A stretch of 64,000 nt of DNA from Candidatus Multivoradales bacterium (lineage in GTDB: Bacteria; Acidobacteriota; Thermoanaerobaculia; Multivoradales; JAHEKO01): the NCBI GenBank assembly GCA_965248055.1, contig CBDFIJ010000004.1:1632001-1696000 (forward strand), read 5' to 3'. Below the pieces are notes generated by a model. The model was not told where the DNA came from. It did not search any database and saw only the letters and a list, made by a program, of their open reading frames with translations. Shown piece by piece: positions 17,724-52,228 of this stretch. The number at the start of each line of letters is the position of its first letter. Position 1 is the stretch's first letter. The position numbers were made by a program, and so were the translations under genes.

Positions 17724-19658
17724 TTAACCGCCGATGACCAAAAGCTCCCTCAAATCATATATCTGGTGAATATTCTCCGATTGATACGCCGATAACCGCT
17801 GCCGATGAAATGGCATGGAGACAGCCTCCATCTCTGCCTTCTCGGCATCTTTGAAACGTCCCAGCTCAGCGTAAATCATCCCCATAGTGACGGCGACTTC
17901 AGAAGTTGCGTCGTCCGTGTAGTGAGCGGTCATAATGTCGAGCGCTCGCTGCTCGTCGCGAGCCGAAGACTCAGCGACCAGCAGCCGAGCCAATTGATGG
18001 GCCACTAGTCCATTGTCTGGCAACAGCTCAGCCGCCACTTCAAGTGTTGCAATAGCCCCCGCTGGATCTTGTGACATGACCATCGCAGCGGCACGGCGCA
18101 AATGAGCCGCTGGGTTAGATGGCTGATCTGCAATCACTTGCTGGTATTGCTCAATGGCTTCCGAATAGCGACCCATGTGGGCCAGAAGGTCTGCCAAACG
18201 GAATCGGGATGAGGTGAGGGTACGGTCTTGCTGCAACCCTTCCAAGAGCGCTGTTATCGCTCGGTCCAACTGCTGATGGCGTACGAAAAATTCCGCCAAT
18301 CCTCTTTGGATCAAAGCGACTCCTCGACTGTCCGAGGACTGCTCCGTTGCTGCCTCCAGAATTTCCAAGGCTCGAGCGAGATCCCCCTCGATCTCACTGG
18401 CTTCGGCCAATCTCACGTACGCAGTCGCCTGCGAAGGATCCAATCCCACAACCCTATTGAGAGCGTCGCGAGCTTCCTGAGTCTTGCCGAGGTTGAGAAG
18501 CGCGGTACCTCGCTTAAGCAACGCTTCAACATTGTTCGGTCTAGCAGCCAATACGTGATCATACCTACCTACCGCTTCCAGGTACTTGCCGGCACGCGCC
18601 TCGAGATTCCCCAACTTAAGGTGCGAAGAAATCAGCTCGACATCAAGTTCCAGGGAGCGCAAGAAATTTCCCCTCGCCATAGAATCTCGATCCAGATAAA
18701 CCCGTAACCCACCGAGTGCGTAATGCAGCCGCGCCCGCAAACGGCGACTATCAGGATCGTCTGTTTTCTCTAGCTCACCCAGATCATCCACGAGGACCTC
18801 TTGGCTCCCCTGCACGTCACCAAATTGAGTCAACGCAAAGCCAAGCAGTTCATCAGCAGTTACCGTATCTTCATCCCCAGCCATCGATAGTAGCGCCTGG
18901 TAGGCGGCCAACAGACGTACTTCTCCGAGGGCTTTGCTCGTGGGGTCATCAAACACCACGCTCTGACGCCCACGAAGTTGTAACTGTCGGTCCGCTTCTT
19001 CGATTTCCCCGCTGGCTCTGATAGCTTGCGACAAAGGCACTCGAATCGCCGACGCCGATGGCTGAAGTCTTAGCGCTTGGCGAAAGGCCATAATCGCCTC
19101 TTGCTCATCATTCAACGCCAACCGGATTTGCCCCAGACCGAAGTACGCCTCCGCGGAAGGGGACAAAGCCAAGGCTTTCGAGTAACTTGCGAGCGCATCT
19201 CGTGTATCTCCAGAAGCCCTTTGAACATCGCCGAGGCGAACCCACGCGTGAGCGGCTTTGGAATCCAGGGCCACAGCGTTGCGGAATTTTTCTTTCGCTT
19301 GATCAACATCGCCTAGAAATTCGCTTACTCGCCCAGAAAAATATGGCCAACGAAATTCTTGAGGGGCGAGCTTGGCAGCTTGATCATAGGCTTCTCGAGC
19401 CGCGTCGCGCAGGTCGAACGCATGGAGAACTTGGCCGTAGTCACCAAAGGCAGCGGCCAAATCCCCATCCGTGGTGTTGGGGTTCGCTAACTGCTGTTCG
19501 ACGTCCGCGTGAACTCCAAGCAACCAATCTCGTAGCGACGGCTCCAATTGGGCCGTATTTGGCATCGGCACAGCCAGAGAAGAACGATCCAAAGGATTGT
19601 CACTGCAAGCTGCGACAACCAAAGCCCCGGACAGGATAAGCGCCCCCAGTCGTCGCAC
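17724..19658 (-). CDS. TPR-repeat lipoprotein (family A copy 1)
   Basis: Lipobox VVAAC; many TPR units; C-terminal GMIYAELGRF; start overlaps the upstream ASPIC/UnbV stop. Confidence 0.85.
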   Translation of the reverse strand: MRRLGALILSGALVVAACSDNPLDRSSLAVPMPNTAQLEPSLRDWLLGVHADVEQQLANPNTTDGDLAAAFGDYGQVLHAFDLRDAAREAYDQAAKLAPQEFRWPYFSGRVSEFLGDVDQAKEKFRNAVALDSKAAHAWVRLGDVQRASGDTRDALASYSKALALSPSAEAYFGLGQIRLALNDEQEAIMAFRQALRLQPSASAIRVPLSQAIRASGEIEEADRQLQLRGRQSVVFDDPTSKALGEVRLLAAYQALLSMAGDEDTVTADELLGFALTQFGDVQGSQEVLVDDLGELEKTDDPDSRRLRARLHYALGGLRVYLDRDSMARGNFLRSLELDVELISSHLKLGNLEARAGKYLEAVGRYDHVLAARPNNVEALLKRGTALLNLGKTQEARDALNRVVGLDPSQATAYVRLAEASEIEGDLARALEILEAATEQSSDSRGVALIQRGLAEFFVRHQQLDRAITALLEGLQQDRTLTSSRFRLADLLAHMGRYSEAIEQYQQVIADQPSNPAAHLRRAAAMVMSQDPAGAIATLEVAAELLPDNGLVAHQLARLLVAESSARDEQRALDIMTAHYTDDATSEVAVTMGMIYAELGRFKDAEKAEMEAVSMPFHRQRLSAYQSENIHQIYDLRELLVIGG

Positions 19659-21397
19659 TAGGAGCCCGCCTGGCGTCCAGTGCCCTCTTGAATCACTTGA
19701 TAAGAGCGCAACTGAAGGTTATCGAACTCCTCCACGAGTCCGCTGACCCAACGCACCGTAAGACTTACTGTTCGATGTTCACCAAGACCGAAAAGCAATC
19801 TTGGGTCACTGGAGGACGCAAATGACTCAGTGGTGTGGACAGTTCGCACCAACGACGACTGATCTTCCAAGTGCAGTATCGCGCGTGCACCAATCGCATC
19901 CCGCACCGCCGAGTCAGCTCCTGCGGTGACCACCCGAAAACCGATCCAGGCCTGATCTTGTCCGACTTGGTTAATCAGTAACTCAACAGGACCGTTGTTG
20001 TTCAGAATTAGCACATCAGTATCGCCATCGTTATCCACGTCGCCTGCCGCTGCTCCTCGACTCACTTCGAGGTTGGCAAACGCAGGTCCGGCTTGATCAG
20101 AAACTTCACGAAACTCTCCTAATCCGCTATTTTGAAACAGTTGATTGCGCATGCGAAGCGGATAGAGAACACCATTTGTCGCCTGTTCTTCTACAATCTG
20201 TACTGCACCGTTTGCAGTCAAGATGTCGAGATCACCGTCGTTATCAAAATCCAAAGCCAGAGCCCCAAAACCGGTGGCCCATTTGGAAGCCGCCGCCATC
20301 CCAGCCCCGATGGTCGCGTCCCTGAAGTTTCCTGATCCGTCATTCTGATACAGCGTATGGGTTTCTCCAGCCAAGTGCGCCATTACCAAGTCGAGATCGC
20401 CATCTGAGTCCAAATCGCCGGAAACAACACCCATACTTGCTTCGGCCTGTCCTTCAGAGTTCAGAGCGGCTCCGCGCACCAAGGACTGATCGTCAAAAGT
20501 GCCATCGCCTCGATTCATCCACAACTGGTTGGGCCTGCCATCATTGGCCACATAGAGATCCAACCAACCGTCGGAATCAGCATCCAGAAACACAGAGCCG
20601 AGAGCCGAGCCAAAGGACTGATTGAGGCCTGCCGACCTAGTCACGTCCTCAAACTCCTCTCCCCGACGATTGTGAAACAGGCGATCACTCAGCTCCGTGT
20701 AAGCAAGTGGCCCACAGTAGTCACGCGCACCGGTGACCCGAAAGCACTGTTTGGGGTTGTCGATCTCCAAGTCCACGTAGTTACCGACGAACAAATCCAG
20801 CCATCCGTCGCGATCGAAATCGAAAACACTAGCAGGCACCGACCAACGCACATCTCCCGCATTCCAGCCCACCGTCGCATCGACAAACTTACCGTCCGGC
20901 CCGCCAAGAAGAAGGCTGTTTTCTTGAAGTCCTGTCAGATATAAGTCAACATATCCATCGTTGTTGAAATCTCCGCTAGCCACACCCATTCCATAGCCAC
21001 GAAGGTCTAGCTCAACCTCTTCCGTGATGTCGACAAATCGAAGTCCCCGGTCGTCCGATCGATTTTCAAACAACCGGTCTCGTGGCGGGCCATCGTCTGA
21101 AAACGTGAACTCCGCTTCTTCTGGGCTACGTCCCGGGGGCAACATGGATCCCTGGGTCAAATAAAGATCGAGGTCACCATCATTGTCGTAGTCGAGCATC
21201 GCGCAACCACCTGCAGTTACCTCGGCCAAATAGAAATCTCCAGCGGCCCCGTGGAAATGGTCAAAGTTCAATCCTGACTCTTTAGCCATATCCAAAAATA
21301 GCGGCTGATTGGTGGGAGCCTCAGTTTGATTCAAGATCCTCTGATCACTGCAGGCAACGAGGACAAGAATCAGGGATAAGGGCGCGCAGGGCATCAT
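19658..21397 (-). CDS. CRTAC1-family protein (FG-GAP repeats + ASPIC/UnbV), lipoprotein, copy 1
   Basis: LVAC lipobox; repeats DYDNDGDLDLY, DFNNDGYVDLY, DFDRDGWLDLF, DVDNDGDTD; C-terminal AIGARA...SSDPRLLFGLG. Confidence 0.9.
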   Translation of the reverse strand: MMPCAPLSLILVLVACSDQRILNQTEAPTNQPLFLDMAKESGLNFDHFHGAAGDFYLAEVTAGGCAMLDYDNDGDLDLYLTQGSMLPPGRSPEEAEFTFSDDGPPRDRLFENRSDDRGLRFVDITEEVELDLRGYGMGVASGDFNNDGYVDLYLTGLQENSLLLGGPDGKFVDATVGWNAGDVRWSVPASVFDFDRDGWLDLFVGNYVDLEIDNPKQCFRVTGARDYCGPLAYTELSDRLFHNRRGEEFEDVTRSAGLNQSFGSALGSVFLDADSDGWLDLYVANDGRPNQLWMNRGDGTFDDQSLVRGAALNSEGQAEASMGVVSGDLDSDGDLDLVMAHLAGETHTLYQNDGSGNFRDATIGAGMAAASKWATGFGALALDFDNDGDLDILTANGAVQIVEEQATNGVLYPLRMRNQLFQNSGLGEFREVSDQAGPAFANLEVSRGAAAGDVDNDGDTDVLILNNNGPVELLINQVGQDQAWIGFRVVTAGADSAVRDAIGARAILHLEDQSSLVRTVHTTESFASSSDPRLLFGLGEHRTVSLTVRWVSGLVEEFDNLQLRSYQVIQEGTGRQAGS

Positions 21398-21418
21398 ATT
21401 GGCGAGCTTACAGCAGAC

Positions 21419-21444
21419 AAAAAAAAGCCCCCGCGAACGGGGGC
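21419..21444 (-). terminator. Rho-independent terminator after TonB-dependent receptor 1
   Basis: Minus strand GCCCCCG-TTCG-CGGGGGC-TTTTTTTT. Confidence 0.9.
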
Positions 21445-21469
21445 CCTTTGAATGCAGTTGAACCGTCGA

Positions 21470-24400
21470 CTAGCGAGGATTCCAGCGAAACCCCACCGAA
21501 ATCTGGAACTCCCGCACATTTTGTAAATCGTCCTCCTCGGTGGCTTTACCGAAGTTGGAGCCCTTGCGCCAATGCGTGCCTTCAACCGGAGTTTCCGTAA
21601 AGGGATTCCAGGTTGACAGCGTTGAGGTTTCAAATCCGGTGGTTACCGAGGTATTCGGATCATCAACCGCATCCTCGTTAAAGAGGTTGGTTACCGAAGG
21701 GATCACAAAGACCGAGAAACGACCGAAGTCCACACTGTAGTTGAACTGAAGATCGGTGCGAGTCACGTCATCCGTAGTGAAGGCACCACGGCCACCGAAG
21801 TAGTAATCTAAGTCGCCTGGCGGGGTGATGTAGCCAGGGTTAGTCACGTAGGGACGTGGGTCCACGGTGCCGATCGCACTGTACGGTTGCCCACTGAGGA
21901 AACTCTGCAACATGCTAACGCTCACGTTGTGGCGGTCGTTGCTGAAAAGGTCATAGATGGCCCAGACGCGCGCACGAAAGCGCTGATCGTTGCTGAGATC
22001 ACCGGTAGGAGAATTCTCGGCAAAACGGTACTCTGGGTAGCTAGTCAAAGAGCTGTCCGAGATAGCCCCCGAGCCGCTGGTCTCGCCGTTGAGGTTACCG
22101 TAAAGGTGAGAAACCGTTGCGTTCGCCCCTACCCGTAGCTTGCCGTCGAGAAAGCGTAAATTGGTAATTACCGATGCGCCATAGTAGTCCCGATTGGCAA
22201 TACTGTCGTTATTAACGATCAGCCCCTTGTCGAACGGAGCACCGGTTTCGGTGGTTCCTTGGCCAGTGCCAAGATCAACTCTCTCCAAAAGGAAATCACC
22301 GAACTCGCGCGCTGAGAGGTCAACTCGAATCCCACCATAAGTTCCAATATTGGTCTGATAACCGAGGGAGAACTCGGTTGCCGTAGTCGAACCAAGTCCG
22401 GTATCCAGCAGGGTTGTCGCACCAGGAATATCGACGTCAAACAGGAACGGGCAGGAGAACGGATCTGCGAGCGCATTCGGGCAGACATCAAAAAACCAAC
22501 TAAAGACCTTCTGGTTAAAGGTCACCGGATCAAAGAAACCGGAGTCGGGGCCGAAATAGTCGAAACCGAACTGCGCGGGACTTCCAGCCGGCGAAGAAGA
22601 ATTGAAAACACCACCTGCAGCGTGGCCAACATACTGGCCGACAAATGCATGTAGGACATGTTCGCCGTCGCCCTTGAGGTCGTAGGTGGCGCCAATACGA
22701 GGACTGACGGCACTGTTCTTAGCTACCTGCAGGCCAAGCGAATTAACCGCATCCAGTTCGTCGAAACGGGCCCCCAAGCTGACACTCAAGCGATCATTGA
22801 CCCGCCACGAATCATTGACGAAGGCGGATTGGGTTTCGAACGCTGTGCCTTGGGTGGGATTCAAGATTGGCAAATACTGAATGGTTGTCGCTCCGGGAAG
22901 CAATAGCGGGAAAACCTTGTCGCCGACAATCTGTGATTCGGCGAAATTCCAAATCATCAAGTCGTTGGGCGACTGATGGTTATCCGCAGCGCGAATGTCC
23001 GTGAAGCTCTCCACGCCGAAAGCCAAATCGTGCGACCCTTGGTCCCCGGCTAGAAAATAAGAGCCCTTGCCGAACCAAGTTTCATTGGAACGTTCTTCGG
23101 GAATACAACCATCGACCTTGGTGTCGTCGCAGAACAAGGATTCGTTGACGATGATGTTGTTGACCAAGTCCCAAACTGGAGTGCCGGTGTCGATTGCATC
23201 GTCACCACCGCCACTGCCTTCAAAGAAAAACTGACGATCAGTTACCCGAGCTTCGACGAAGAAGTTAGGGGTCAAAACCCCAGTGTAACTAAGAACGTTC
23301 AACTCCTGCGGTAGAGAACGAACATCATCCAGCGACCCATCGTCGATGGTGGCCAAGAAATTACTAAGACCACCGTGTGGCACGCCAGTTTGGTCGTTTT
23401 CGATCTCAGTATACCCAGCCTGTAACTGGTGCTTCTCGGTCATGCCCAAAGTGAGTTTTCCACTCAGGCGCGAGTTGTCGGTGCCGGTGGGATAAGAAAT
23501 ATTGAGAAAACTGGTGCCAGTACCCTCGGTCGAGCGATCCCGTCCAGCGGCAAAAAACCACAATTTGTCGCGCATAATCCGGCCACCCAAGGTGGCTTCG
23601 AGCGTGTGATTCAGCGTGTCCTCACGCGTTTCTGGCGAAAAATCATTCTTGCCTAGCCAGTCTTCATTGTCGAAAGTCGTGCGGATCGAGCCCTCAAAGT
23701 TATTACCACCCGACTTCGAGATCGCATTCACCACGCCGCCAGTGAAACGACCGTACTCAGCCGAAATAGCGCCGGTCTGAATCGTGGTCTCTTGAATTTC
23801 ATCTTCGATGAACAACTCAAATTCTTGTCCGCGGATGTTCTCATTCAGAACCACTCCGTTGAGCGTGTAGAGGTTGTCCCAAGACTGAGCGCCATTGATT
23901 GAATCACCGTTGACTCCAGTGGCGACCCCTGGAGACAGGGCGACCGCATTTCCAAGCGCCCGACCGACGGGAAGAGCATCCAACTCTTCAGATGTTATGG
24001 TAGACGATTTAGTACTGGTCTGGGAAATAGCTTGGGTCGCCTCCCCGGTAACCACGATCTCCTCTGAAATCGACCCAGAACCCAGGATCACATCCATGGG
24101 TAATGTCTGTGCTGCATTTACCTTCACCCGTTGGGTGGCAGCCTGAAATCCTTCCAATTGGAAGGTCACTTCGTATTCGCCAGGAGGCAGTGGTGGCGAA
24201 GCAAAGCCACCGTTGCTTTCGCTGACAATGACTCTGGAACCTTGTAGATTGTCTGACTCCAGGGTAATGGTCACCCCAGGCAAGCCAGCGTCATCTGAGT
24301 CGGAAATGTTTCCGGTTATCCGACCGGTACTCTGAGCCGCCAGCGGCATGGCAATGAGCGCCACCGCAAACAAACTCATCAGGAAAAACTTGAGCTTCAT
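21470..24400 (-). CDS. Oar-like TonB-dependent receptor with N-terminal carboxypeptidase-regulatory-like domain (copy 1)
   Basis: Signal peptide, LPGVTITL...LPPGEYEVTF domain, plug motif ISAEYGRFTGGVVNAISKSGGN, beta-barrel strands ending FQISVGFRW; GGAGGT RBS. Confidence 0.92.
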   Translation of the reverse strand: MKLKFFLMSLFAVALIAMPLAAQSTGRITGNISDSDDAGLPGVTITLESDNLQGSRVIVSESNGGFASPPLPPGEYEVTFQLEGFQAATQRVKVNAAQTLPMDVILGSGSISEEIVVTGEATQAISQTSTKSSTITSEELDALPVGRALGNAVALSPGVATGVNGDSINGAQSWDNLYTLNGVVLNENIRGQEFELFIEDEIQETTIQTGAISAEYGRFTGGVVNAISKSGGNNFEGSIRTTFDNEDWLGKNDFSPETREDTLNHTLEATLGGRIMRDKLWFFAAGRDRSTEGTGTSFLNISYPTGTDNSRLSGKLTLGMTEKHQLQAGYTEIENDQTGVPHGGLSNFLATIDDGSLDDVRSLPQELNVLSYTGVLTPNFFVEARVTDRQFFFEGSGGGDDAIDTGTPVWDLVNNIIVNESLFCDDTKVDGCIPEERSNETWFGKGSYFLAGDQGSHDLAFGVESFTDIRAADNHQSPNDLMIWNFAESQIVGDKVFPLLLPGATTIQYLPILNPTQGTAFETQSAFVNDSWRVNDRLSVSLGARFDELDAVNSLGLQVAKNSAVSPRIGATYDLKGDGEHVLHAFVGQYVGHAAGGVFNSSSPAGSPAQFGFDYFGPDSGFFDPVTFNQKVFSWFFDVCPNALADPFSCPFLFDVDIPGATTLLDTGLGSTTATEFSLGYQTNIGTYGGIRVDLSAREFGDFLLERVDLGTGQGTTETGAPFDKGLIVNNDSIANRDYYGASVITNLRFLDGKLRVGANATVSHLYGNLNGETSGSGAISDSSLTSYPEYRFAENSPTGDLSNDQRFRARVWAIYDLFSNDRHNVSVSMLQSFLSGQPYSAIGTVDPRPYVTNPGYITPPGDLDYYFGGRGAFTTDDVTRTDLQFNYSVDFGRFSVFVIPSVTNLFNEDAVDDPNTSVTTGFETSTLSTWNPFTETPVEGTHWRKGSNFGKATEEDDLQNVREFQISVGFRWNPR

Positions 24401-24510: not shown

Positions 24511-24670
24511 ATCATCAGCAATAAAGCGAACTCCCCAGACAACCTACTAATCGCCGGTAAAGCTTTGTATCCGTTCGTTTTACGATTAAAGCAAACAACG
24601 GCCTCGGAACGCAATTTATGGACCGATCGCTACTTCGGTTCAATCCATTGGAAGCTGTAGTTCAATGGGT

Positions 24671-24686
24671 TGGATTATCCGTTGCT
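24671..24686 (+). promoter_or_regulatory. Possible divergent sigma54 motif for the TPR gene
   Basis: TGGATT-ATCCG-TTGCT; correct spacing but weaker -24 element. Confidence 0.35.
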
Positions 24687-24732
24687 ACGGTGGAGCCAAC
24701 CGCGCCCAAAAGCCCCTATGATTAAATCAACT

Positions 24733-26610
24733 ATGAGTATCTCACACCACCAATCATACCCAACTCCCTGGATCTTCATTTTGATAATCAGTTGCTCACA
24801 ACAGTGGACACCTCCGGAAATATCCCTCGTGGGAGCATCTAGGTCTACTCAACAGCGCGTCGAACGGGCTCGCTCACTCGCGGGGCCGGGCGCTGCTAAG
24901 CAAATTGCTGATCTCGGTGACCTCTATTTTGCCTTGGGCTACTCGGGGGCTGCAGGGGCCTGCTACCGCCGTTCTTTTGCTCTACAACCGAATATTGAGA
25001 GCGGTTTTCTAGCCGCGAGCACAACCAGGGAGTCCGGAGACACAGCGACCGCTGAAACCTACTTTCACAGGGTCTTGGATTTAGATGCAAAGCACAAGTC
25101 TTCACGTTTGAGCCTCGCTGAGATGCTGCTCGAGAACCATAAACTGGAACTCTCCATCGAGAGCTATCGCCACGTGTTATCTGATTACCCAGGCGATCCT
25201 CAAGCATTAGTTGGACTGGGGCGTGCCTTGCTAGCAGCGGGCCGTGGAGATGAAGCCGCGACAGCTTTGGTGGAGGTCTTGCGCCTAAGACCTCACGCCA
25301 CCTCGGTCCATGCGTCCATTGCCGAAGCCTATCGAGCTATTGGCCGCCCAGACCTTGCTCGTGGTCACCTCACCAAAGCCGGACCTGGGGCCATCATGAG
25401 CGACGACTTGATCCTGGCGCGAGTTGGACGGCTCCGCATTGAGCTAATCGGGGAAACCGTTATCGCGCTGTCAGAGCAGGAGACCGTATCAGCTGAGGAT
25501 GTCGCCGGGTTCACGGTGGCGCAGCTGGGTCCGGTACCAGGAGCGGTTGCTGGTCTCAAGCAGATCGCCCCAAAACTTGTATCAAATTCTGGCCAGCACT
25601 CCGCTCGATTTTGGTTTGCGGTGGGCGCCCTCGCGGACCGACAAGGAAACCCTAATGAAGCCGAAGCGGCCTATGGTCAGGCGATCAATGAAGACCCAAG
25701 GTTGAGTTCCGCCAAACTACGCCGAGCACAAGCGCTGGTTAAGTTGGAGCGCTGGGATGACGCGGCCGCGTTATTCAAAGAGCTTCCATCACTGGATACC
25801 AAACACATTCGTGATTATGCGTCCACCTTGGCACAAACCGACGAACTCAGTCCCGCTGCGTCGCTCTTGCAAAACGCGATCGACAACTCTCCTCAGCAAC
25901 GCGACCGCGAGCAGCTCCAGCTCGATCTGGCTGACGTTCAACTGGCTCTAGGACAGACCGTGAGCGGGCTGCGATTGTATCAGCAAGTAACGGAAAGTTC
26001 CGACCCGATCCTGGCCGCGTCCGCATGGATGTCTTTAGGGGAACAGCAACGCACACAAAATAACTACGCATCTGCAATTGACGCATTTGGTAGAGCGATC
26101 GAATCTTCACCCAAGTGGTTAAATCCCCGGTACTCCCTTGCCGCTACTTTGGCGCAACTTCGTCGTTTCAATGACGCTTCTCTGCAGTACCGAAAGATCG
26201 TTGAACTGCAGCCTACGGAAGAAACAGCATGGCTGGGTGCGGCGACCGCAAAGGTATTGGGCGGAGCGGACCCAAAACAAACCACCGATCTATTAGCCTC
26301 TGCCCTGGATGCCCTGCCACAAAGTACTCGCCTTCGAGCGGCTCTGGCTAGACACCTTGTTGTCACCTCAGCGATAACCCCGCCCGAGGACGCCGTACAA
26401 GCCCTTGAGCTCGCCCAGGGATTGATCAACCTAAATCGGTCAACTGAAAACCTGGAAACCAAAGCAATGGCGCTGGCAGCCCTAGGTCGCTTCGCGGAAG
26501 CCATCGCTACTCAAGAGGAACTCCTGGTCAACGCCACCGAATCCGACACCGGTCGCCTGGAGGCAAACCTAGCTCGATACCGTCGGCAGCAACCATGCTG
26601 CCGCAACTGA
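24733..26610 (+). CDS. TPR-repeat putative lipoprotein (family A copy 2)
   Basis: Hydrophobic leader ending IISC; TPR units; C-terminal AMALAALGRFAEAIATQ shared with paralogues; start uncertain (24670/24718/24733). Confidence 0.8.
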   Translation: MSISHHQSYPTPWIFILIISCSQQWTPPEISLVGASRSTQQRVERARSLAGPGAAKQIADLGDLYFALGYSGAAGACYRRSFALQPNIESGFLAASTTRESGDTATAETYFHRVLDLDAKHKSSRLSLAEMLLENHKLELSIESYRHVLSDYPGDPQALVGLGRALLAAGRGDEAATALVEVLRLRPHATSVHASIAEAYRAIGRPDLARGHLTKAGPGAIMSDDLILARVGRLRIELIGETVIALSEQETVSAEDVAGFTVAQLGPVPGAVAGLKQIAPKLVSNSGQHSARFWFAVGALADRQGNPNEAEAAYGQAINEDPRLSSAKLRRAQALVKLERWDDAAALFKELPSLDTKHIRDYASTLAQTDELSPAASLLQNAIDNSPQQRDREQLQLDLADVQLALGQTVSGLRLYQQVTESSDPILAASAWMSLGEQQRTQNNYASAIDAFGRAIESSPKWLNPRYSLAATLAQLRRFNDASLQYRKIVELQPTEETAWLGAATAKVLGGADPKQTTDLLASALDALPQSTRLRAALARHLVVTSAITPPEDAVQALELAQGLINLNRSTENLETKAMALAALGRFAEAIATQEELLVNATESDTGRLEANLARYRRQQPCCRN

Positions 26611-32914: not shown

Positions 32915-33207
32915 ATTGAGTCTCCTAAACCCTACCGCCCACAACGAATTGTCTCACTTTCTCGTTTGGCCGTGCAGCATTGCTAAACCTGTATTGGGCA
33001 GGCTTCATTGTTTGACCGTATTTCTTTCGTATGATTTCGTGTATTGGTCGTCTGTCAACGCCGTTCTTTACCCAGGCTAATGCTGTAGAAAAGATCGACG
33101 ACCCCACTGGACTCGCCTACAAACCTCCTGCGGTATCGCCTAACAGCACGAGCGACATGAAACAATCCCCTTTCGTGCGGATCCCTGTTATTCGTTCAAT
33201 CTTAGCT

Positions 33208-34908: not shown

Positions 34909-34944
34909 ACACAAGACCTGCTCAACGACGGCGGGTCAACCAAC

Positions 34945-37232: not shown

Positions 37233-37280
37233 CCAGGGGCAACTCTCACTTCAAACACCCCATGTCGGATCAGTCGGGGA

Positions 37281-37296
37281 TGGCGCAAAAGATGCA
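37281..37296 (+). promoter_or_regulatory. Possible sigma54 motif upstream of VWA copy 3
   Basis: TGGCGC-AAAAG-ATGCA, GG-N10-GC spacing, ~57 nt before the ATG. Confidence 0.5.
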
Positions 37297-37352
37297 ACGA
37301 CTTTTGGCTTCACGATCGCCTAACACTCAGTCACAAAAGCAAACAAAACACC

Positions 37353-44646: not shown

Positions 44647-47532
44647 TTAGAAGCGGAAACCAACCGCGAAGCGGTACTCACGAGGAGTTACGTAATCCGC
44701 GTTGTTGCGCGCGTTACCGAACGAAGCAGCTTGCGTGAAGGTTGTCGGACGACCCAATGAATCGAGCGGACCCGCTCTATTCGCTGAAATCGTGGTATCC
44801 CAGAAGATCTGCTTATCTTCATTAAGGATATTGAAGACCTCGGCCTTGACATAAAAATCTAAAGCTTTGACGGTCGGAATGCTGTAATTGAGCGCCAAAT
44901 CGAATGTCGTCCAACTGGCGAAATCACCAGCTCCTCGGTCGCCGAAAAACAGCGTAGGCGTGGCTGGGGGATTGGCGTATCCCGCAGCACTAATTAATCC
45001 TCGCTGTATCGAGGTCAATGGAAACCTGGTGCTGAAGTCGAATACACCGCCCGACTCATAATTGCCAAGCAGACTGGTTGACAAGCTACCGCCACGACCA
45101 AAGTTGAAGTTGTAGCGAGCCCACAGTCGAATCTTGTCCTCAGTGAACTCGTCGAGGCGCCCCAACGGCGCATTGCGGCGGTCCAAAGCCTCCGGAAAAT
45201 CGCCAAAAGTCGAAGCGCCGAAACTTTGACCGGTTTCGCCTTCATAGTCACCATCATTCTTGAACTGATGCGTCCAATGACCTTCGATCGAAAGCTTTTC
45301 GGTGATGTTGTATCGACCCTGCAGGATTCCTGCTTGATATTCCCGGGTTGGTGAATCAGTGTTGTCATACACAACGTTGTTTAGCGTGATCGGTCGAATC
45401 CCGAGGTCAGGGCGGTTGACGGTGGTACTACCGTTCACCGCCAGAAACAGATCTTCGACAAAGTTGTCGGTCGAGCGATCGACAAAAGTGGCTTCAAAAT
45501 AGCCTCCTTTAGGCAGCTCAATACCTCCCTGCAGAGTGAACTCTTGCACTGTCGGTGAACTCACGTTTTCGTTAAAGAACACATTCGCAGTAGGAAAAGC
45601 GCCCGCAAAAAAGCCCCAGGCGTTGGGATCGAAGCCACCGTTAGGGTCGCCCGGTGTTCCGTAGTAGTAGCCATAGACGTAACTAGGGGTACCGACATTG
45701 GTCACAGCGGCGTAGTTGTTGCCACCAAAGCCGTAGCCACCGGCATACTCACCGTAGGTTCCGGTTACGCGGTACCTGCCATCGCCCTTGACATCATAGG
45801 TCGCCGCTAGCCTTGGCACGATCGCGTCCGTGGATACCGGCTCTGCACCGGCGTTGGTGCCGCTACTGATATCCTCATAACGAAGACCTAGGTTAAATGA
45901 CCAGTGATCATCCAGCTGCCAACGATCATTGACATAAAAGGATTGGGTCTGCAACTGCAGTTCTGCCCCGCGAACGGCTTCGAAGAAGACTCCTAGGCTG
46001 CTCGGCTGCGGGTTGGGGATCAGATCGCCATCCGCGCCTATCACCACGTTACCGCTAGCATCCAGCAACGGATCAATGAATAACACCCAATCGGTAGCCG
46101 TCTGCGAGTTACCACCGACATTGATGTTGGTAAATTCTTCTACACCGAACCGCAAGTCATGGGTGCCGTGATTGGTGTCGCCAAAATAAGAGACGCTTGC
46201 CGCAGTCTGTTCATTGTCTCGATCCTCCGGGTCGGTGGCGTCAAAGTAAACCGCGTTGTAAGAGCAGCCCGCCTGATTCCAGCAGCGAATCGGCGAATCG
46301 CTGATGTCGGTGCCGACCGATGATTGGGGAATATGGCGGAAACCAAATTGCTTCTCCGAATATTGGGCATCGGCAAACACAGACGGGGTCCAGACACCGT
46401 TGTAGTTGAACTTAGTCAACTCCTGAGGAAATTCAATGCTCTCGATGGTTTGCAGCGTCGATCCAGAACCCAAAGACGGACGTACCACGGCGCGATCGCG
46501 TTCCATGAATCCGGCGCTTAGGTTGTGTTTCTCTGCTACGGTCGCGGTCAGTTTACCTTCCAAACGCTCATCATCATCTGGTTGTGAAAACGGAATTCCA
46601 GTGCGCGCCAAGAGGATTTGGGTAGTTCGTGAAGTGTCACGACCGGCGGCGAAAAACCATAATTGGTCTTCGATGATCTTGCCGCCCAACGTGCCAGAGT
46701 AAATATCACTGCGATCATTGGCCCGCTCAACTCCGTTGGTATCCTCTAGCGGCGTCTCTTCGCGCCACAAGGGATTGGTGGTGTCGAGGCGGAGGCTACC
46801 GGAGAATTCGTTGCCTCCACTCTTGGTGATCGCGTTGACGACTCCTCCTGAGAAACGGCCGTACTCGGCCGAGATTCCAGAGGTCAGAACTTGAGTCTCC
46901 TCTATCGCATCCTCGATAAACAGGGAAGTAGCAGTAGCGAATATCGGGTCAGTAATGTCTACGCCATCGAGCAGGAATACTGAGTCAAACTGAAATCCGC
47001 CACTGATAGAAACCTGGCCAGCCACCTGAGAGGTACTGCCCTGGGTCAAACCTGGAGATAGGTCGGCGATTGCCGCCATGCTCCGGTTGCCGGTCGGCAG
47101 GGTGTCAACTTCTTCAGCGCTGAGGTTGATCCCTACAGTTGGAGTTTCCAGCGCACTCACCGATTCTCCGGTGACTACGATGAGGTCTTCAAAATTGGCT
47201 GGTAACTGGGCTGAGACTTCTGCGCTCTGGCCTAGCTCCAAGGTCTGAGTCGTTTCGACGGTCGACATTCCGTCCATAGTCACAGTAACCGTGTAGTCAC
47301 CGCGAGGAAGGCCACGAAGAACGTAGGATCCGTTCCCGCTAGTTACTGTCTCCCGGACTCCTTGAAGGGAATCCGAGGCTGCTGTTACCACTGCGCCAGG
47401 AAGCGCTCCGCCATCTTCGTCCGTCACTGTTCCACGAATGGTCCCGGACTGAGTGCCCTGAGCCAACATTGGAGTAACAAGTACGAAAGATGCAACGAGT
47501 AACAGGTTTGCAAAATTTACCTTTCTACTCAA
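44647..47532 (-). CDS. Oar-like TonB-dependent receptor (copy 2)
   Basis: TTG start with GAAAGGAGA RBS; LPGAVVT...LPRGDYTVT; ISAEYGRFSGGVVNAITKSGGN; ends YRFAVGFRF. Confidence 0.92.
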   Translation of the reverse strand: MSRKVNFANLLLVASFVLVTPMLAQGTQSGTIRGTVTDEDGGALPGAVVTAASDSLQGVRETVTSGNGSYVLRGLPRGDYTVTVTMDGMSTVETTQTLELGQSAEVSAQLPANFEDLIVVTGESVSALETPTVGINLSAEEVDTLPTGNRSMAAIADLSPGLTQGSTSQVAGQVSISGGFQFDSVFLLDGVDITDPIFATATSLFIEDAIEETQVLTSGISAEYGRFSGGVVNAITKSGGNEFSGSLRLDTTNPLWREETPLEDTNGVERANDRSDIYSGTLGGKIIEDQLWFFAAGRDTSRTTQILLARTGIPFSQPDDDERLEGKLTATVAEKHNLSAGFMERDRAVVRPSLGSGSTLQTIESIEFPQELTKFNYNGVWTPSVFADAQYSEKQFGFRHIPQSSVGTDISDSPIRCWNQAGCSYNAVYFDATDPEDRDNEQTAASVSYFGDTNHGTHDLRFGVEEFTNINVGGNSQTATDWVLFIDPLLDASGNVVIGADGDLIPNPQPSSLGVFFEAVRGAELQLQTQSFYVNDRWQLDDHWSFNLGLRYEDISSGTNAGAEPVSTDAIVPRLAATYDVKGDGRYRVTGTYGEYAGGYGFGGNNYAAVTNVGTPSYVYGYYYGTPGDPNGGFDPNAWGFFAGAFPTANVFFNENVSSPTVQEFTLQGGIELPKGGYFEATFVDRSTDNFVEDLFLAVNGSTTVNRPDLGIRPITLNNVVYDNTDSPTREYQAGILQGRYNITEKLSIEGHWTHQFKNDGDYEGETGQSFGASTFGDFPEALDRRNAPLGRLDEFTEDKIRLWARYNFNFGRGGSLSTSLLGNYESGGVFDFSTRFPLTSIQRGLISAAGYANPPATPTLFFGDRGAGDFASWTTFDLALNYSIPTVKALDFYVKAEVFNILNEDKQIFWDTTISANRAGPLDSLGRPTTFTQAASFGNARNNADYVTPREYRFAVGFRF

Positions 47533-47607: not shown

Positions 47608-47644
47608 GTGTGCCAACACAATAAAAATCTCATAAGTTATTTTA

Positions 47645-47657: not shown

Positions 47658-47727
47658 TACAAAGAAACGCACGTTAATAGACCAACCTTATGAACTTGAG
47701 AATCAAAATTCCGGACGCCGCCGGCGA

Positions 47728-49272
47728 CTAAGGCACTCGGACCGGTCGCTGGTCTCGGTATCCCTGCAGTCGGGCATTGGCACGCTCAAGCCACAAAGAA
47801 GAAGCATCTTCGCCAACTGTGGAGATCAAACGCTGCTGCCAGGCGACCGCCAGATCGAAACGACCAGCCTCCGCAAACGCCATCGCCATCAACTCAACGT
47901 GTCCAACGGATGGCTCAGCCTTAACCAGCTCGGATGCGATTTGGATTGCACGAACACCATCTCGAACGCTGCGGTCGCGACAAGAAGAAAGTATGTGAAC
48001 CAAACCAGATTGCAGCAGACGGCTTCCCGGGTCTTGCGCTATCCCGGTTTCGATCACCTTAAGACCGCGCTCACACTGTCCTGCCGCAACGTAACGCCCA
48101 GCAATCTCGATCTGAAGATCGGTATTCCTGGGGTCAGAACTCAGGGCTTCGTTATAGATGACCGCTGCGGCACCAGGGTCACCGTGGAGCAAGAGAGCTT
48201 CGGCAATAGCCAATCGAAAATCGTTGCGGGTTGGTTCCAGGTCGACCGCCGTCTTGAGATTCTCAATCGCTGTTGAGTAGCGACCAAGTCGTGTATTGAC
48301 CACGCCTATGTTGAACCAGAGGTCGGCGTTGCTGGGACGAAGCGCCGCAGCTTTTTCAAAAGCGCCTAAGGCTTGATCATATTCGCCGGTGCGAAACAAA
48401 GATGTCGCCAAGCTGTGCCAAATTGTTGAGTCTTCGGGATTCTGTTGAATGGCTTGGCGATAAGCGTCGGTCGACGCGACAAAATCCCCGGCACGCAGGG
48501 CTGCATCTCCCCGGCGCAGGATGCCTCCTATCCCGCGAGCAAGCAGTTGCACCTGATGCATCGCCGCATCACTCAGCACCACATCTACATCACCAATCAA
48601 CGCTTGATGGCGACGGACAGCTTCGTCCTGTTCCAACCTTCCGTAAGCCTGGACAAGCAAGCCGTGAAGCCTGGAGGCTTGTGGCTGCACCTCCAGCGCT
48701 TGCAGTAAGTATTCGACCGCAGCGGAGTAGTTGTCACTGGCGAGCGCACATCGTCCGAGTCCAGCCAGGCTGGTAGCGTCTCGAGGTGATTCCACGATCG
48801 CTTGTAGGTATAAGCCGCGAGCCTCCTCAGCCCGCCCGGCTTGAAAGTGAACCCGAGCCAGTCTGTTGATGGCAGTCGTATGATCCGGGCGATTTTCGAT
48901 GACTTGACGAAACTGATCCGCGGATTGATCGACCAACCCACGCTCCTCCAAGCAGATCGCCAATAGATAACGTGCCGTGTCGTTTTCCGGAGTCAAGGAG
49001 ATTACGTTTTCGTAAGCTACAGTCGCCTGATCATGGAATGAATAAGCTTGAAACAGGCGACCGATCTCAAGAAAAGCCGCGCTTCTATCCTTTTGGTCCC
49101 GCTGTTGGTCCAACGCGTCTCTCGATAGTCGACTGATCTCTTCAGTCAGGTGATCGGTTGCCTCTTCGCCCATCTCGGACAACGGGATCTCTGGCATTGG
49201 CTGTAACTTTGGAGTACAGGCAACCACCAACACCACCAGCATGCAAGCGCACGCCAGCCATTCAGATCTCAT
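47728..49272 (-). CDS. TPR-repeat lipoprotein (family A copy 4)
   Basis: Lipobox VVAC; TPRs; C-terminal AMAFAEAGRFDLAVAWQ; start moved to ATG 49272. Confidence 0.85.
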   Translation of the reverse strand: MRSEWLACACMLVVLVVACTPKLQPMPEIPLSEMGEEATDHLTEEISRLSRDALDQQRDQKDRSAAFLEIGRLFQAYSFHDQATVAYENVISLTPENDTARYLLAICLEERGLVDQSADQFRQVIENRPDHTTAINRLARVHFQAGRAEEARGLYLQAIVESPRDATSLAGLGRCALASDNYSAAVEYLLQALEVQPQASRLHGLLVQAYGRLEQDEAVRRHQALIGDVDVVLSDAAMHQVQLLARGIGGILRRGDAALRAGDFVASTDAYRQAIQQNPEDSTIWHSLATSLFRTGEYDQALGAFEKAAALRPSNADLWFNIGVVNTRLGRYSTAIENLKTAVDLEPTRNDFRLAIAEALLLHGDPGAAAVIYNEALSSDPRNTDLQIEIAGRYVAAGQCERGLKVIETGIAQDPGSRLLQSGLVHILSSCRDRSVRDGVRAIQIASELVKAEPSVGHVELMAMAFAEAGRFDLAVAWQQRLISTVGEDASSLWLERANARLQGYRDQRPVRVP

Positions 49273-49285
49273 TGATTTCAAGCGC

Positions 49286-50986
49286 TTAGCCTTCACTGTT
49301 TCGGGGGACTGTCGCGGCAACACTGCTAGCGGGTTGGGCGAGACGGTGGTATCGATCTATCTCCAGATCGGCCCAGTGCCCTTGGGTTCCATCCGCCCAG
49401 AGAACTTCGATAGAAAGAGGCGCGGTAGCTTCACCCACTCCAATCAGAATCCTACCGTCCTTGGCTGAACCATAGCTTCCGTCTGTGGCTACGGTCGCCA
49501 GCTTCCGTCGACCGTTCTGAACGACCAAAATGGTGCTACCAATAGCAATGCTACCGTCCCGATTCTTCAAGTCAAAGCCAATCCAATGGTGGTGGCGACT
49601 CTGGTTGAGCAAAATATCGGGCCCATCACCAATATTGGTGACCACCAAGTCGGCGCGGCCATCGTTGTCGAGATCCCCCACCGCAAGCCCACGACTCACT
49701 TTGGCACGCTTGAATTCCTGAGATACCAACCCAGCCTCAGTAAATGACTGGCCTCGGTCGCTTAGAAATAACTGGTTTGGCTGCGCTAAAGGAATACGGA
49801 CTCCAGCCTGCAATTGATCCGAAACCACGCTAATTGCTCCGTTGGCCAAAGCGATATCAAGCCAGCCATCCAGATCGACATCAAGAAAACCCGTACCAAA
49901 TGCGGTCAACTGGAGGCTGGGAGTTGCGAGTCCGCTGGTGGACGTCGCGTCTTTGCAGAACCCGCCACCATCCATCTGGTACAAGGTGTTGCTCTCACCT
50001 GTTAGATGGGCCAAAAACACATCATGGTCGCCATCGCTGTCGTAGTCGCCGATCGCTACCCCCATACTAGCTTCCGGGTTGCCCTCTTGATTGACAGCAC
50101 AGCCACCGACCAGGGCTCGGTCGGAAAACGTTCCATCCCGATTGTTGATCCACAACGTGTTGGGTTGGCTATCGTTGGCGATGTACAGGTCAGGCCAGCT
50201 ATCGCCATCGAAGTCTCGAGCAGTAGCTCCCAGGGTGTTGGTGGCAATCCGGCCAATTCCGGACGCCATCGAAACATCCTCGAAGCGACCTCCACCTAGG
50301 TTGTGAAACAGACGATCAGGAACTGAGGTGTAGGCCAACGGGCCGCAGTAATCCGGCCATCCCGCTGGAGCCATACAAGGAATGTGTGCTTCAACTTGAA
50401 AATTTAGAAAATTGCCGACGAACAGGTCAGATAATCCGTCGCGGTCGTAGTCGAAGAATGTGGCCGCAATACCCCAGCGCGGGTCATCAACGCCCGCTCG
50501 CTCTGTAACATCGGCAAAGGTGCCATCTTGGTTGTTTCTAAGAAGTTGGTTCGACCCAAACCGAGTGACGTAAAGATCCGCCCAGCCGTCACCATCAAAA
50601 TCACCCGTGGCGACGCCCATCCCATAGCCACTCGGACTAGGGAGTGCCTCAGAACCCACTGAGGAAAACGCCAGAGTAGTTGGATCGTCCACCAAGTCAT
50701 TACGGAACAAGGCATCTTCCCAGGTTTCGCCACCGGCTTCAAAGCGCCCGCCTTGAACAAAGAACAGGTCCAAGTCCTGATCATTGTCATAGTCCAGCAG
50801 CGCGACGCCACCGCCCATTATTTCGGGGACGTAGTAGGAACCCGTAGCTCCGTCCTGGTGGTGGAAATCAACGCCCAGCGCCTCGGTGGCGTTTCGAAAC
50901 CGTTCGCCACTCCCAGAGCCTCCCCCAGAACAGCCCCATCCCAAGAACAGCAGCAAGACCAACGACTGGCGAGTAGTTAACGCCAC
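49286..50986 (-). CDS. CRTAC1-family protein (FG-GAP + ASPIC/UnbV), copy 3
   Basis: GWGC lipobox-like; DYDNDQDLDLF, DFDGDGWADLY, DYDRDGLSDLF, DLDNDGRADL repeats. Confidence 0.9.
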   Translation of the reverse strand: MALTTRQSLVLLLFLGWGCSGGGSGSGERFRNATEALGVDFHHQDGATGSYYVPEIMGGGVALLDYDNDQDLDLFFVQGGRFEAGGETWEDALFRNDLVDDPTTLAFSSVGSEALPSPSGYGMGVATGDFDGDGWADLYVTRFGSNQLLRNNQDGTFADVTERAGVDDPRWGIAATFFDYDRDGLSDLFVGNFLNFQVEAHIPCMAPAGWPDYCGPLAYTSVPDRLFHNLGGGRFEDVSMASGIGRIATNTLGATARDFDGDSWPDLYIANDSQPNTLWINNRDGTFSDRALVGGCAVNQEGNPEASMGVAIGDYDSDGDHDVFLAHLTGESNTLYQMDGGGFCKDATSTSGLATPSLQLTAFGTGFLDVDLDGWLDIALANGAISVVSDQLQAGVRIPLAQPNQLFLSDRGQSFTEAGLVSQEFKRAKVSRGLAVGDLDNDGRADLVVTNIGDGPDILLNQSRHHHWIGFDLKNRDGSIAIGSTILVVQNGRRKLATVATDGSYGSAKDGRILIGVGEATAPLSIEVLWADGTQGHWADLEIDRYHRLAQPASSVAATVPRNSEG

Positions 50987-50995
50987 GAGTAGTAG

Positions 50996-52228
50996 TTATA
51001 GGTAGTCCAAGATCTCTTTTGCCTGCGTTGCCTGCGCCGAACTGGGGGCCGCATCGATAACCTCCAGAAACAGCTCCTTGGCCACTTCTATCTGGTTGTT
51101 GTTTAGCGCCAGAGACGCGCGAGCAAAGAGAGCCTTAGGGTTGGTCGGGTTGAGCTTGATCGCCTCAGTCGAAAGGTGGTCCGCAATGTCCAAACGACCG
51201 CGGTTGAGGTACTCATTGGCTTGTTCACCCAAGATGTCTGACGCCCGCAACGGATCCGCTTCCTTCATCACCGCTAGATAGCTTTCCGCTGCATCGTGGT
51301 CCCCGGTTCGTTGGTTGATGTCGAACAGGACAATCAAGGCACCCGGATCTTGAGGGTCGAGCGCCAGCGCAGCCTGAGCCAGTTCCTCAGCGGATTCAAA
51401 TTCTTCATCGGCAGCATACAGACGAGCCAGAGTGGACATCGCTTCCAAGAAATCCGGCTGTAGTTCCAATGCTTTGCCGATTAGGGACGTACTCAGATCT
51501 TGTTGACCTGAAGCTAACGCAACCGCCCCGGCGTTGAACAAACGCTTGGGGGTATCAGCGTCTCCGGTGGCCACCACTTGGTCGACAATCGCCAGAACAC
51601 CCTCGGAGTTTTTGGCTGACACCAAGGAATCAAACAAGATGTTCAGCGCGTCGACGTTTTCCGACTCTCGATCCAACCATTGCTGGGCCACTTCACTCGC
51701 CTCAATATATTTTTCTGCTTGATATAGAACCTGCGCCAGAGTCTCGTATGCCGCTACCATTTCCGAGTCAACGAAAATCGCCTCGCGAAAACTGACAATT
51801 GCCGCCTCAAGATCTCCATCATTAAATGCCGCCGCACCAATATTGAAGATCTCGATCGCTTTCTCGTCGCCAACCAATTCAACCTCTACCCACTCCACCA
51901 ACTCCCAGGTCAGTCGTATGGCTTCTCCTACTTTGACGTCGATGACGTCCGAAGACGGGATGTATCCATCTTTGGAAATCTCCACCTTGTAGTCCCAGGT
52001 GGCATCGGTGAAGGTCGCGGTAAACCTTCCCTTCTTGTTGGTGGTGTAAGTCTCGTCAAACGGACTGCCGACCCCGGTGATTACCACCGTGGCGTCTGCA
52101 ACTGGCACTCCCGAATCGTCCAGCACCGTGCCGCTGATTCGACCTTGCGGTCCAGCAATCAGTGATGACGAAAACACAAGCAAACAAAGAGCAATAAATG
52201 GTGAAACTGATCGATTAAACATTCTCAT
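50996..52228 (-). CDS. Secreted carboxypeptidase-regulatory-like + TPR protein (family B copy 2)
   Basis: Signal peptide, GRISGTVLDDSGVPVADATV...TNKKGRFT, TPRs. Confidence 0.85.
   Translation of the reverse strand: MRMFNRSVSPFIALCLLVFSSSLIAGPQGRISGTVLDDSGVPVADATVVITGVGSPFDETYTTNKKGRFTATFTDATWDYKVEISKDGYIPSSDVIDVKVGEAIRLTWELVEWVEVELVGDEKAIEIFNIGAAAFNDGDLEAAIVSFREAIFVDSEMVAAYETLAQVLYQAEKYIEASEVAQQWLDRESENVDALNILFDSLVSAKNSEGVLAIVDQVVATGDADTPKRLFNAGAVALASGQQDLSTSLIGKALELQPDFLEAMSTLARLYAADEEFESAEELAQAALALDPQDPGALIVLFDINQRTGDHDAAESYLAVMKEADPLRASDILGEQANEYLNRGRLDIADHLSTEAIKLNPTNPKALFARASLALNNNQIEVAKELFLEVIDAAPSSAQATQAKEILDYL

Follow-up and report, generated by a model that had tools for sequence, protein, structure and literature searches.

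A composite locus of TonB-dependent receptors, CRTAC1-like propellers, TPR lipoproteins and VWA proteins in an Acidobacteriota lineage

The window analysed here is a 64-kb stretch (G000:C4:1632001-1696000) of the 3.35-Mb chromosome (57% GC) of Candidatus Multivoradales bacterium, and our subject is an 18-gene locus at window positions 17724-52228. It encodes TonB-dependent receptors, calcium-loop propellers related to cartilage acidic protein 1 (CRTAC1), tetratricopeptide repeat (TPR) proteins, von Willebrand factor type A (VWA) proteins and an enzyme of the alkaline-phosphatase superfamily. With a probability of roughly one half, we read the locus as a composite in which three conserved envelope modules, linked to one another in this Acidobacteriota lineage, act in integrated uptake. 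What is new in this window is the presence of CRTAC1-TPR pairs, VWA and enzyme modules and a class of CarboxypepD_reg-TPR proteins in one locus conserved across genera. The tightest unit of the locus is the CRTAC1 propeller with its abutting TPR lipoprotein.

The 34.5-kb stretch contains exactly 18 large open reading frames (ORFs), with housekeeping genes on both flanks. Classes were assigned by Pfam and NCBIfam scans of all 18 proteins, which also define the scope of the family absences given below for the locus, and leaders (signal peptide or lipobox) were called by eye from the N-termini. An earlier reading made from the DNA alone (hereafter the sequence-only reading) had listed 18 consecutive genes comprising two receptors, three CRTAC1-type proteins, four TPR proteins of a family A and two of a family B, four VWA proteins, one sulfatase-like protein, one orphan and one redox protein, 17 of them with export leaders. 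The ORF listing, the scans and the N-termini bear out these counts, the redox protein being the sole one without a leader, and the gene orders named are correct when read on the minus strand. As that reading had also said, SusD, glycoside hydrolase, MoxR and regulator families are not found among the 18 proteins. The genes are arranged as unit A on the minus strand (receptor > CRTAC1 > TPR), a lone TPR gene on the plus strand divergent from unit A, unit B on the minus strand (VWA > beta-sandwich-TPR > VWA > CarboxypepD_reg-TPR), unit C on the plus strand (VWA > flavoprotein > VWA) and unit D on the minus strand (CarboxypepD_reg-TPR > CRTAC1 > TPR > receptor > enzyme-TPR > CRTAC1 > TPR).

Conservation and clustering of the modules

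We compared the locus with 20 stretches from related genomes chosen where UnbV_ASPIC matches cluster, a choice that biases for CRTAC1 only, and with six stretches added later. Five classes were followed: the Oar-class TonB receptor, the CarboxypepD_reg-TPR protein, the enzyme-TPR protein, CRTAC1 with its TPR partner, and the TIGR03436 VWA protein. In G009, G011, G012 and G019, which represent four more genera from two families of the order, all five lie inside stretches of about 36-56 kb, and the sub-orders receptor > CarboxypepD_reg-TPR > enzyme-TPR and a divergent CarboxypepD_reg-TPR > VWA > VWA recur there. The receptor and the enzyme are adjacent in these four genomes, in G001, which is a sister species of the same genus, and in G020, which has the order CarboxypepD_reg-TPR > receptor > enzyme along with a VWA-X-VWA trio. 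Two tallies of matches across genomes, 20/21 and 21/21, both count an unpublished genome (G002), on which no other result depends.

For a proximity test we used complete match lists from one large contig each of the genome under study, G001, G011, G012 and G019. A TIGR03436 gene lies at most 20 kb from CRTAC1 in 14 of 34 loci, against an expectation of 4.8 when VWA clusters were moved at random; none of 5000 permutations reached 14, a figure that overstates the case because the relatives are not independent. The sequence-only reading had treated the genes as parts of one system, and the neighbourhood check agrees to the extent that the parts are not scattered independently, the five classes co-occurring and CRTAC1-VWA proximity being enriched.

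The whole window is collinear, in inverted orientation, with G001, where one-to-one orthologues were found for all 18 genes at 40-81% identity, the upper value being that of the receptor at 21470-24400. Paralogues inside the locus are only 25-45% alike, and the duplications are therefore old. Collinearity with G001 does not by itself show linkage, because the housekeeping flanks are collinear too. The GC content is about 0.53-0.565 within the locus vs 0.56-0.595 in the flanks; recent transfer was not adopted as an explanation of this dip because the locus is both collinear and diverged in G001.

Within the genome itself, hidden Markov models (HMMs) for six families were built from the paralogues and run over all ORFs, and high-scoring members were counted. 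The locus, 1% of the chromosome, holds 16 of the 41 strong members (receptors 2/10, VWA proteins 4/9, CRTAC1 3/7, TPR partners 4/7, CarboxypepD_reg-TPR proteins 2/5 and sulfatase-like enzymes with TPRs 1/3), a clustering that exceeds chance. Most of the remaining members sit in three other mixed clusters; those at C4 878-896 kb and 2219-2249 kb are among the mixed clusters elsewhere in the genome. At 878-896 kb, VWA > CRTAC1 > TPR stands beside CarboxypepD_reg-TPR > receptor > Phosphodiest plus TPR; the receptor-enzyme pairing is seen again here, the enzyme being another member of the alkaline-phosphatase superfamily.

Two further observations concern these paralogues. The third mixed cluster (L113:10113-12488, L114:2483-5350; G000:C4 about 2224-2237 kb) is broken by Mutator-family and rve transposase genes and also holds a 955-aa PKD/Ig-repeat protein beside two receptors. 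A very close paralogue of the receptor at 44647-47532 (1643 of 2179 self bits) lies outside such clusters, at G000:C4:2350583-2353489, which suggests a recent duplication.

Architecture of the modules

The three CRTAC1-like lipoproteins are encoded on the minus strand at 19658-21397 (579 aa, lipobox L-V-A-C; FG-GAP_3 3.1e-37, UnbV_ASPIC 5.6e-14), 40707-42407 (566 aa; 2.4e-51 and 1e-12) and 49286-50986 (566 aa; 6.9e-42 and 2.3e-9), and all exceed the cut-offs for PF13517 (FG-GAP_3) and PF07593 (UnbV_ASPIC). Their best relatives are from Acidobacteriota metagenome-assembled genomes. The Asp and Gly residues of five DxDxDG-type loops are invariant in alignments of 15 and 31 sequences, and residues 56-556 of 40707-42407 match PDB 9etn_A, 'Cartilage acidic protein 1' (phmmer E 1e-16).

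The TPR partner lipoproteins match TPR families only. Three follow a CRTAC1 gene on the minus strand: 17724-19658 (644 aa, last gene of unit A, lipobox V-A-A-C; 614 bits with the partner HMM), the start of which overlaps the stop of the CRTAC1 gene by 1 nt, 39095-40780 (561 aa as called; 631 bits), which closes unit D, and 47728-49323 (531 aa). The fourth, on the plus strand at 24670-26610 (646 aa as called, the start probably being later; 549 bits), has no CRTAC1 gene of its own and diverges from the unit A receptor across a 270-bp AT-rich spacer. A lipobox Cys is present in the CRTAC1, TPR-partner and enzyme proteins alike. Across the genome, a TPR gene of the partner family abuts CRTAC1 in 7/7 close paralogues.

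A cross-phylum scan for CRTAC1, with one genome per species, yielded 80 loci from Acidobacteriota, Planctomycetota, Poribacteria, Latescibacterota, Gammaproteobacteria and Verrucomicrobiota, 71 of which had a complete central gene and 52 of which extended 2 kb or more to either side. In 40 of these 52 loci CRTAC1 abuts a TPR gene on its own strand or is fused to TPRs (TPR gene upstream only in 23, downstream only in 13, on both sides in 3, fused in 1), leaving 12 with neither. The far flanks, more than 3 kb from any CRTAC1, contained 16 TPR ORFs in 656 kb, and by rough arithmetic about one abutting TPR gene per 52 loci is expected by chance. Four single ORFs encode TPRs followed by FG-GAP and UnbV_ASPIC, fusions that were confirmed by Pfam. 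A receptor lies within 5 kb in 23/52 loci, most commonly in the order receptor > TPR > CRTAC1.

The TPR lipoprotein at 47728-49323 is modelled as an all-helical superhelix of about 13 repeats (pLDDT 92.9), and its best PDB matches by Foldseek are consensus TPR, OGT and SPINDLY. SusD is absent among the 50 Foldseek matches listed for it, which comprise only generic TPR solenoids; with no Pfam match either, the SusD analogy was rejected for this lipoprotein and kept as one of position only. The sequence-only reading had proposed complex modelling of the parts of the locus, and for one CRTAC1-TPR pair (49286-50986, residues 40-566; 47728-49323, residues 53-523) a complex model gave an ipSAE of 0.61. 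The runs scored 0.61, 0.60 and 0.68 vs 0.00 for the best of three controls, with contact agreement between runs of at least 63% and partner pLDDT of at least 82. Among solved complexes, 116 of 157 attain the mark used for this score, as do 2 of 215 mismatched pairs, counts that hold only roughly because our own alignments were used. In the modelled interface, propeller residues 292-303 and 330-359 lie against TPR residues 94-247, and the first segment includes G295 and G302, both invariant in the 31 aligned CRTAC1 proteins. The models support the view that propeller and TPR lipoprotein bind each other.

Both receptors have the domain plan of the Oar subclass, with a CarboxypepD_reg extension, plug and barrel. 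The first gene of unit A, at 21470-24400 (976 aa, minus strand), matches CarboxypepD_reg (PF13620) with 55.1 bits, OMP_b-brl_4 (PF25183) with 71.4 bits and Plug (PF07715) with 23.1 bits, the last being 0.8 bits under the cut-off of 23.9; the corresponding values for 44647-47532 (961 aa, minus strand, C-terminus GFRF) are 66.4, 58.4 and 29.2 bits. With the SusC/RagA model TIGR04056, 21470-24400 scored 20.4 bits vs a cut-off of 368.25 and 44647-47532 gave no match; a search of PDB sequences with the receptor found none. The genome has 11 TonB_C matches, located outside the locus. The two secreted CarboxypepD_reg-TPR proteins, both on the minus strand, are encoded by the last gene of unit B at 26619-27872 (417 aa; CarboxypepD_reg 27-106, TPR 130-413) and the first family member of unit D at 50996-52228 (410 aa; 31-109 and 128-398). 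A BLASTP comparison with the N-terminal extension of the receptor (24% over 102 residues, E 2.5) was not significant, so the link between the two is the shared Pfam domain.

The enzyme at 42443-44563 (706 aa, minus strand) is a lipoprotein with matches to Sulfatase (141 bits) and Phosphodiest (50 bits) and with TPRs at 437-693. It has VDTLRSD and then T-L-P-A-H-S-S-L-L-T-G at the position of the sulfatase motif C/S-x-P-x-R. In HMMER alignments, T-L-P-A-H at 78-82 pairs with S-T-P-A-R of choline sulfatase 7oz8, and 14 of 16 enzyme-TPR proteins examined carry T-[LA]-P-x-H, the other two falling outside the pattern used. Enzymes of the NPP, LtaS and EptA types use a Thr at the sulfatase nucleophile position as their nucleophile. 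Given Thr and His in place of the Cys-or-Ser and Arg of sulfatases, we read the protein as a putative phosphoesterase or phosphotransferase rather than a true sulfatase, and the 'sulfatase-like' label of the sequence-only reading falls away. A formylglycine-dependent (S1) sulfatase was likewise rejected, as the protein has no C/S-x-P-x-R and its relatives keep the Thr-type motif. The 'sulfatase' of the locus is a likely mis-annotation that should not be counted in surveys of sulfated-glycan use.

All four VWA proteins exceed the TIGR03436 cut-off of 81.25 bits. They are encoded at 27929-29122 (397 aa, minus strand, with Big_7 and VWA_2; 110.5 bits), 31133-32944 (603 aa, minus strand, first gene of unit B; 144.6 bits), 33031-34908 (625 aa as called, plus strand, probable start at Met60, with a leader; 185.1 bits) and 37353-39098 (581 aa, plus strand; 195.7 bits). 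Only the first retains the DxSxS metal site (DSSLS at 180). The three of about 600 aa have D-N-x-N/S there, as do their paralogues in the same genome; their degenerate sites are D-N-T-S-L, D-N-F-N-L and D-N-Y-N-V in the order given. The integrin-like combination of propeller and VWA/MIDAS (metal-ion-dependent adhesion site) domain suggested earlier is weak, because three of the four VWA proteins lack the metal-site serines and VWA genes occur in only 3 of the 52 cross-phylum loci; the conserved partner of the propeller is the TPR protein.

Between two of the VWA genes lies 29139-31136 (665 aa, minus strand), which matches no Pfam family above cut-off and had been called an orphan. It is not one: a full HMMER search of 1.84 billion representatives found 609 relatives at E<=1e-3 (a word-index search found 3), and 38 of 41 aligned family members match TPR_19. 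The structure model (pLDDT 87.4) has strands at 28-310 and helices at 348-661, and the matches listed in a structural search were TPR only, over residues 348-626. By this model the protein is two beta-sandwich domains followed by a C-terminal TPR array. Relatives also have its N-terminal domain in VWA proteins of about 720 aa, there as the C-terminal part.

The protein without a leader, at 35169-37232 (687 aa, plus strand), is classed as an inner-membrane flavoprotein-polyferredoxin with a YpdA-like Pyr_redox_3 domain, transmembrane segments, a NapH-like part and two CxxCxxCxxxC motifs. In this genome (G000), G001, G012 and G020 the flavoprotein domain follows a pair of TIGR03436 VWA genes that lack the MIDAS; one copy of this VWA-VWA-Pyr_redox_3 arrangement in our genome is at G000:C4:750134-754834 (L115) and others are in L122 and L123. 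At 33031-39098 of the window the flavoprotein lies between the two VWA genes, as a fusion with a NapH-like iron-sulfur membrane part. The link between flavoprotein and VWA proteins, which would join a secreted fold to a cytoplasm-facing protein, is probably real. The composite loci of G009, G011, G012 and G019 contain no flavoprotein or redox match, and G019 has no match to the redox protein at E<=1e-10.

Just past the locus, on the strand of unit D, 53647-58855 encodes two secreted zinc peptidases, one of the M64 (IgA-peptidase) type and one DUF5117/DUF4953 Met-zincin. Methyltransferase and OsmC genes lie between these peptidases and the locus and are replaced in G001 by a third receptor and a further CarboxypepD_reg-TPR gene. 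Upstream of the M64 gene (53647-55113), on the minus strand, are two paralogous small ORFs, 55110-55529 (139 aa) and 55817-56254 (145 aa), and between them ORF 55513-55773 is a copy of the M64 5' end (residues about 31-70); the segment 55110-56254 looks like a partial tandem duplication. One tRNA gene (5883-5955) is the sole Rfam match in the window at the gathering threshold.

Proposed assembly and alternative explanations

In the reading that we favour, module 1 would be an Oar-class TonB transporter followed by a lipoprotein of the alkaline-phosphatase superfamily that has a Thr nucleophile and ends in TPRs; a secreted CarboxypepD_reg-TPR protein is often present as well. Module 2 would be one or more pairs of a CRTAC1 calcium-loop propeller and a TPR superhelix lipoprotein forming a complex, with the N-terminal TPRs holding a propeller loop on their concave side. 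Module 3 would consist of secreted VWA-fold proteins of TIGR03436 in arrays, most of them lacking a functional metal site, together with beta-sandwich-TPR and CarboxypepD_reg-TPR proteins and in part the flavoprotein. Each soluble part has a TPR array of its own or in a partner, which applies to the enzyme, to the CarboxypepD_reg and beta-sandwich modules and to the propeller. Through these TPR arms, exchangeable heads for binding and catalysis may be docked around the transporter at the outer membrane; the assembly would capture a macromolecular substrate and trim or cut phosphoester groups, and the product would be passed to the TonB-driven transporter for import. Gene content, paralogy, the conservation of the modules and of their proximity, the type of active site and the fusions are observed, and the propeller-TPR contact is a model prediction. 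We infer the docking at the transporter, the direction of import, the class of substrate and the outer-membrane face of the lipoproteins. The sequence-only reading had proposed a capture and uptake or surface-assembly apparatus analogous to polysaccharide utilisation loci (PULs); the co-occurrence of its parts stands, the integrin-like combination is weak, and the TPR lipoprotein is not SusD-like by Pfam or among the 50 Foldseek matches listed.

Several observations weigh against integrated uptake. The compared loci were chosen for clustered CRTAC1 matches, and the relatives are not independent. The locus consists of separable modules in four or five transcription units on both strands rather than of a fixed 18-gene machine; a shared upstream motif was sought at 10 receptors and 12 other unit starts, and no 8-10-mer was present in more than four regions, the top 8-10-mers deriving from one spacer counted twice. 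Inner-membrane transporter, regulator and catabolic enzyme families were not found among the 18 proteins, and 22 receptor-linked CRTAC1 loci have heterogeneous neighbours with no common catabolic partner (Pfam, 105/169 other ORFs). The score of the modelled complex is model confidence rather than a measurement, and the sequencing runs listed for this DNA are four, from one study, none of them RNA. Finally, in the passages of PMC6434023 drawn on here, the sole characterised Oar-class transporter is required for secretion, not import.

An unlikely but serious alternative is that independently expanded envelope families, with no common substrate or complex, piled up by tandem duplication and by shared constraints on genes for secreted proteins in the same chromosomal neighbourhoods, so that the CRTAC1-TPR and receptor-enzyme pairs would be the only functional units. 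The modules are indeed found apart: 20 of the 34 CRTAC1 loci have no VWA gene within 20 kb, the cross-phylum loci have VWA genes in 3/52 and enzyme-TPR genes in 7/52, and in G020 modules 1 and 3 are accompanied by no more than a single weak, fragmentary UnbV/CRTAC1 match. The distribution over several units and both strands agrees with such a pile-up, and the conservation in G001 says little, since the housekeeping flanks are included in it. These families are also known as paralogue expansions in Solibacter, in a study (PMC3174227) that, in the part relied on here, only lists them. Against a pile-up stand the co-occurrence of the five classes in four other genera, which belong to two families and keep the receptor operon divergent from the CarboxypepD_reg-TPR > VWA > VWA operon, the CRTAC1-VWA proximity of 14 loci vs 4.8 expected, and the concentration of 16/41 family members in the locus.

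That the locus serves export or surface assembly we consider quite improbable. The Oar barrels would then move lipoproteins or other cargo outward, and the TPR, VWA and propeller proteins would build a surface matrix or adhesion layer, much as TPR scaffolds act in secretion of the BcsC/PgaA/PelB/AlgK type. VWA and FG-GAP folds are classic adhesion parts, 17 of the 18 products appear by their leaders to be exported, and the TPR proteins have weak generic NCBIfam matches to PrsT, PgaA and BcsC. These matches are, however, far under the cut-offs and reflect the repeats only, synthase, glycosyltransferase and polymerase families were not found among the 18 proteins, and integrin-type ligand binding needs metal-site serines that three of the four VWA proteins do not have. 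Uptake loci, moreover, are usually recognised by a hydrolase-type enzyme that immediately follows the receptor.

Very improbable, finally, is a Bat-type role in envelope stress or redox maintenance, in which VWA and TPR proteins would act with the membrane flavoprotein-polyferredoxin and the receptors would be bystanders: the VWA-VWA-Pyr_redox_3 triad kept in four genomes, the flavoprotein between two VWA genes of the window and weak, sub-threshold BatC-like TPR matches point to it, but MoxR ATPase, DUF58 and membrane-anchored BatA/B-type VWA proteins were not found among the 18 proteins, and redox matches are missing from the composite loci of the four further genera, in G019 from the matches at E<=1e-10 altogether.

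Comparison with known systems

The Bat/MoxR-VWA systems differ from the locus in the MoxR AAA+ ATPase and DUF58 proteins, which it lacks. TPR-scaffolded exopolysaccharide secretion (BcsC, PgaA, PelB, AlgK/E) differs in that no glycosyltransferase is found in the locus, and the PgaA and BcsC models give its TPR proteins 17-64 bits vs cut-offs of 367-858. Integrin-type VWA/MIDAS proteins are set apart by the DxSxS motif, present in 27929-29122 only.

The four VWA proteins belong with TIGR03436 (acidobact_VWFA), described in NCBIfam as a paralogous expansion, and differ from it in the D-N-x-N of three members and in the linkage to CarboxypepD_reg-TPR and beta-sandwich-TPR proteins and the flavoprotein. 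The enzyme resembles the Thr-nucleophile members of the alkaline-phosphatase superfamily (NPP, LtaS, EptA/MCR, BcsG and phosphonate monoester hydrolases) in its Sulfatase/Phosphodiest fold, the Thr at the nucleophile position and the metal-binding Asp in VDTLRSD. Unlike these it has no membrane anchor, and instead has a lipobox, about 270 residues of TPRs at its C-terminus and a place behind a TonB-dependent receptor.

Vertebrate CRTAC1/ASPIC (PDB 9etn) shares with the locus proteins the FG-GAP/VCBS propeller, the DxDxDG calcium loops and UnbV_ASPIC. The locus proteins are lipoproteins, have no EGF-like tail (no such Pfam match) and are paired with or fused to TPRs. We know of no counterpart in the locus to the known partners of animal CRTAC1. 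A function for bacterial UnbV/CRTAC1 proteins was not found in the literature by title and abstract, and no paper on TIGR03436 came up. The sequence-only reading knew of no functional description of the assembled system, and a literature search, whose reach excluded subscription journals and bioRxiv supplements, found none.

By domain plan alone the receptors are like Oar of Myxococcus xanthus, with a signal peptide, CarboxypepD_reg extension, plug and large barrel. Oar is tied, in the passages drawn on, to protein secretion and to its own Ton genes (PMC6434023), whereas the receptors of the locus have lipoproteins and an enzyme as neighbours and the TonB genes lie elsewhere.

The closest likeness in layout is to the SusC/SusD PULs and utilisomes of Bacteroidota, in which a TonB transporter with a CarboxypepD_reg-type extension also stands beside helical and beta-rich lipoproteins and a lipoprotein enzyme; the order receptor > TPR > CRTAC1 mirrors SusC > SusD > binding protein. 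In family terms the locus differs: no SusD-family Pfam match was obtained at E<=1e-3 among the 18 proteins, glycoside hydrolase and regulator families are lacking, the helical lipoprotein is an open TPR superhelix with OGT and consensus TPR as best PDB matches, and the receptor score lies far below the SusC/RagA cut-off of 368. The locus is SusCD-like in layout and, by these family models, without a SusD-family lipoprotein or a SusC/RagA-type transporter. We tentatively suggest that it may be an independently evolved Acidobacteriota counterpart of the Bacteroidota utilisome, with Oar transporters and TPR-docked plug-in heads, namely the CRTAC1 calcium propeller, the Thr-type phosphoesterase and Ig-like and VWA-fold modules. 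If so, the TPR-propeller complex would place the CRTAC1 family in a functional context for the first time in any organism. Oar-class TonB transporters, CRTAC1, TIGR03436 and TPR proteins rank with the most expanded gene families in Acidobacteriota, a phylum dominant in soil, and a conserved modular accessory kit of this kind would offer an experimental handle on what these bacteria take up and how.

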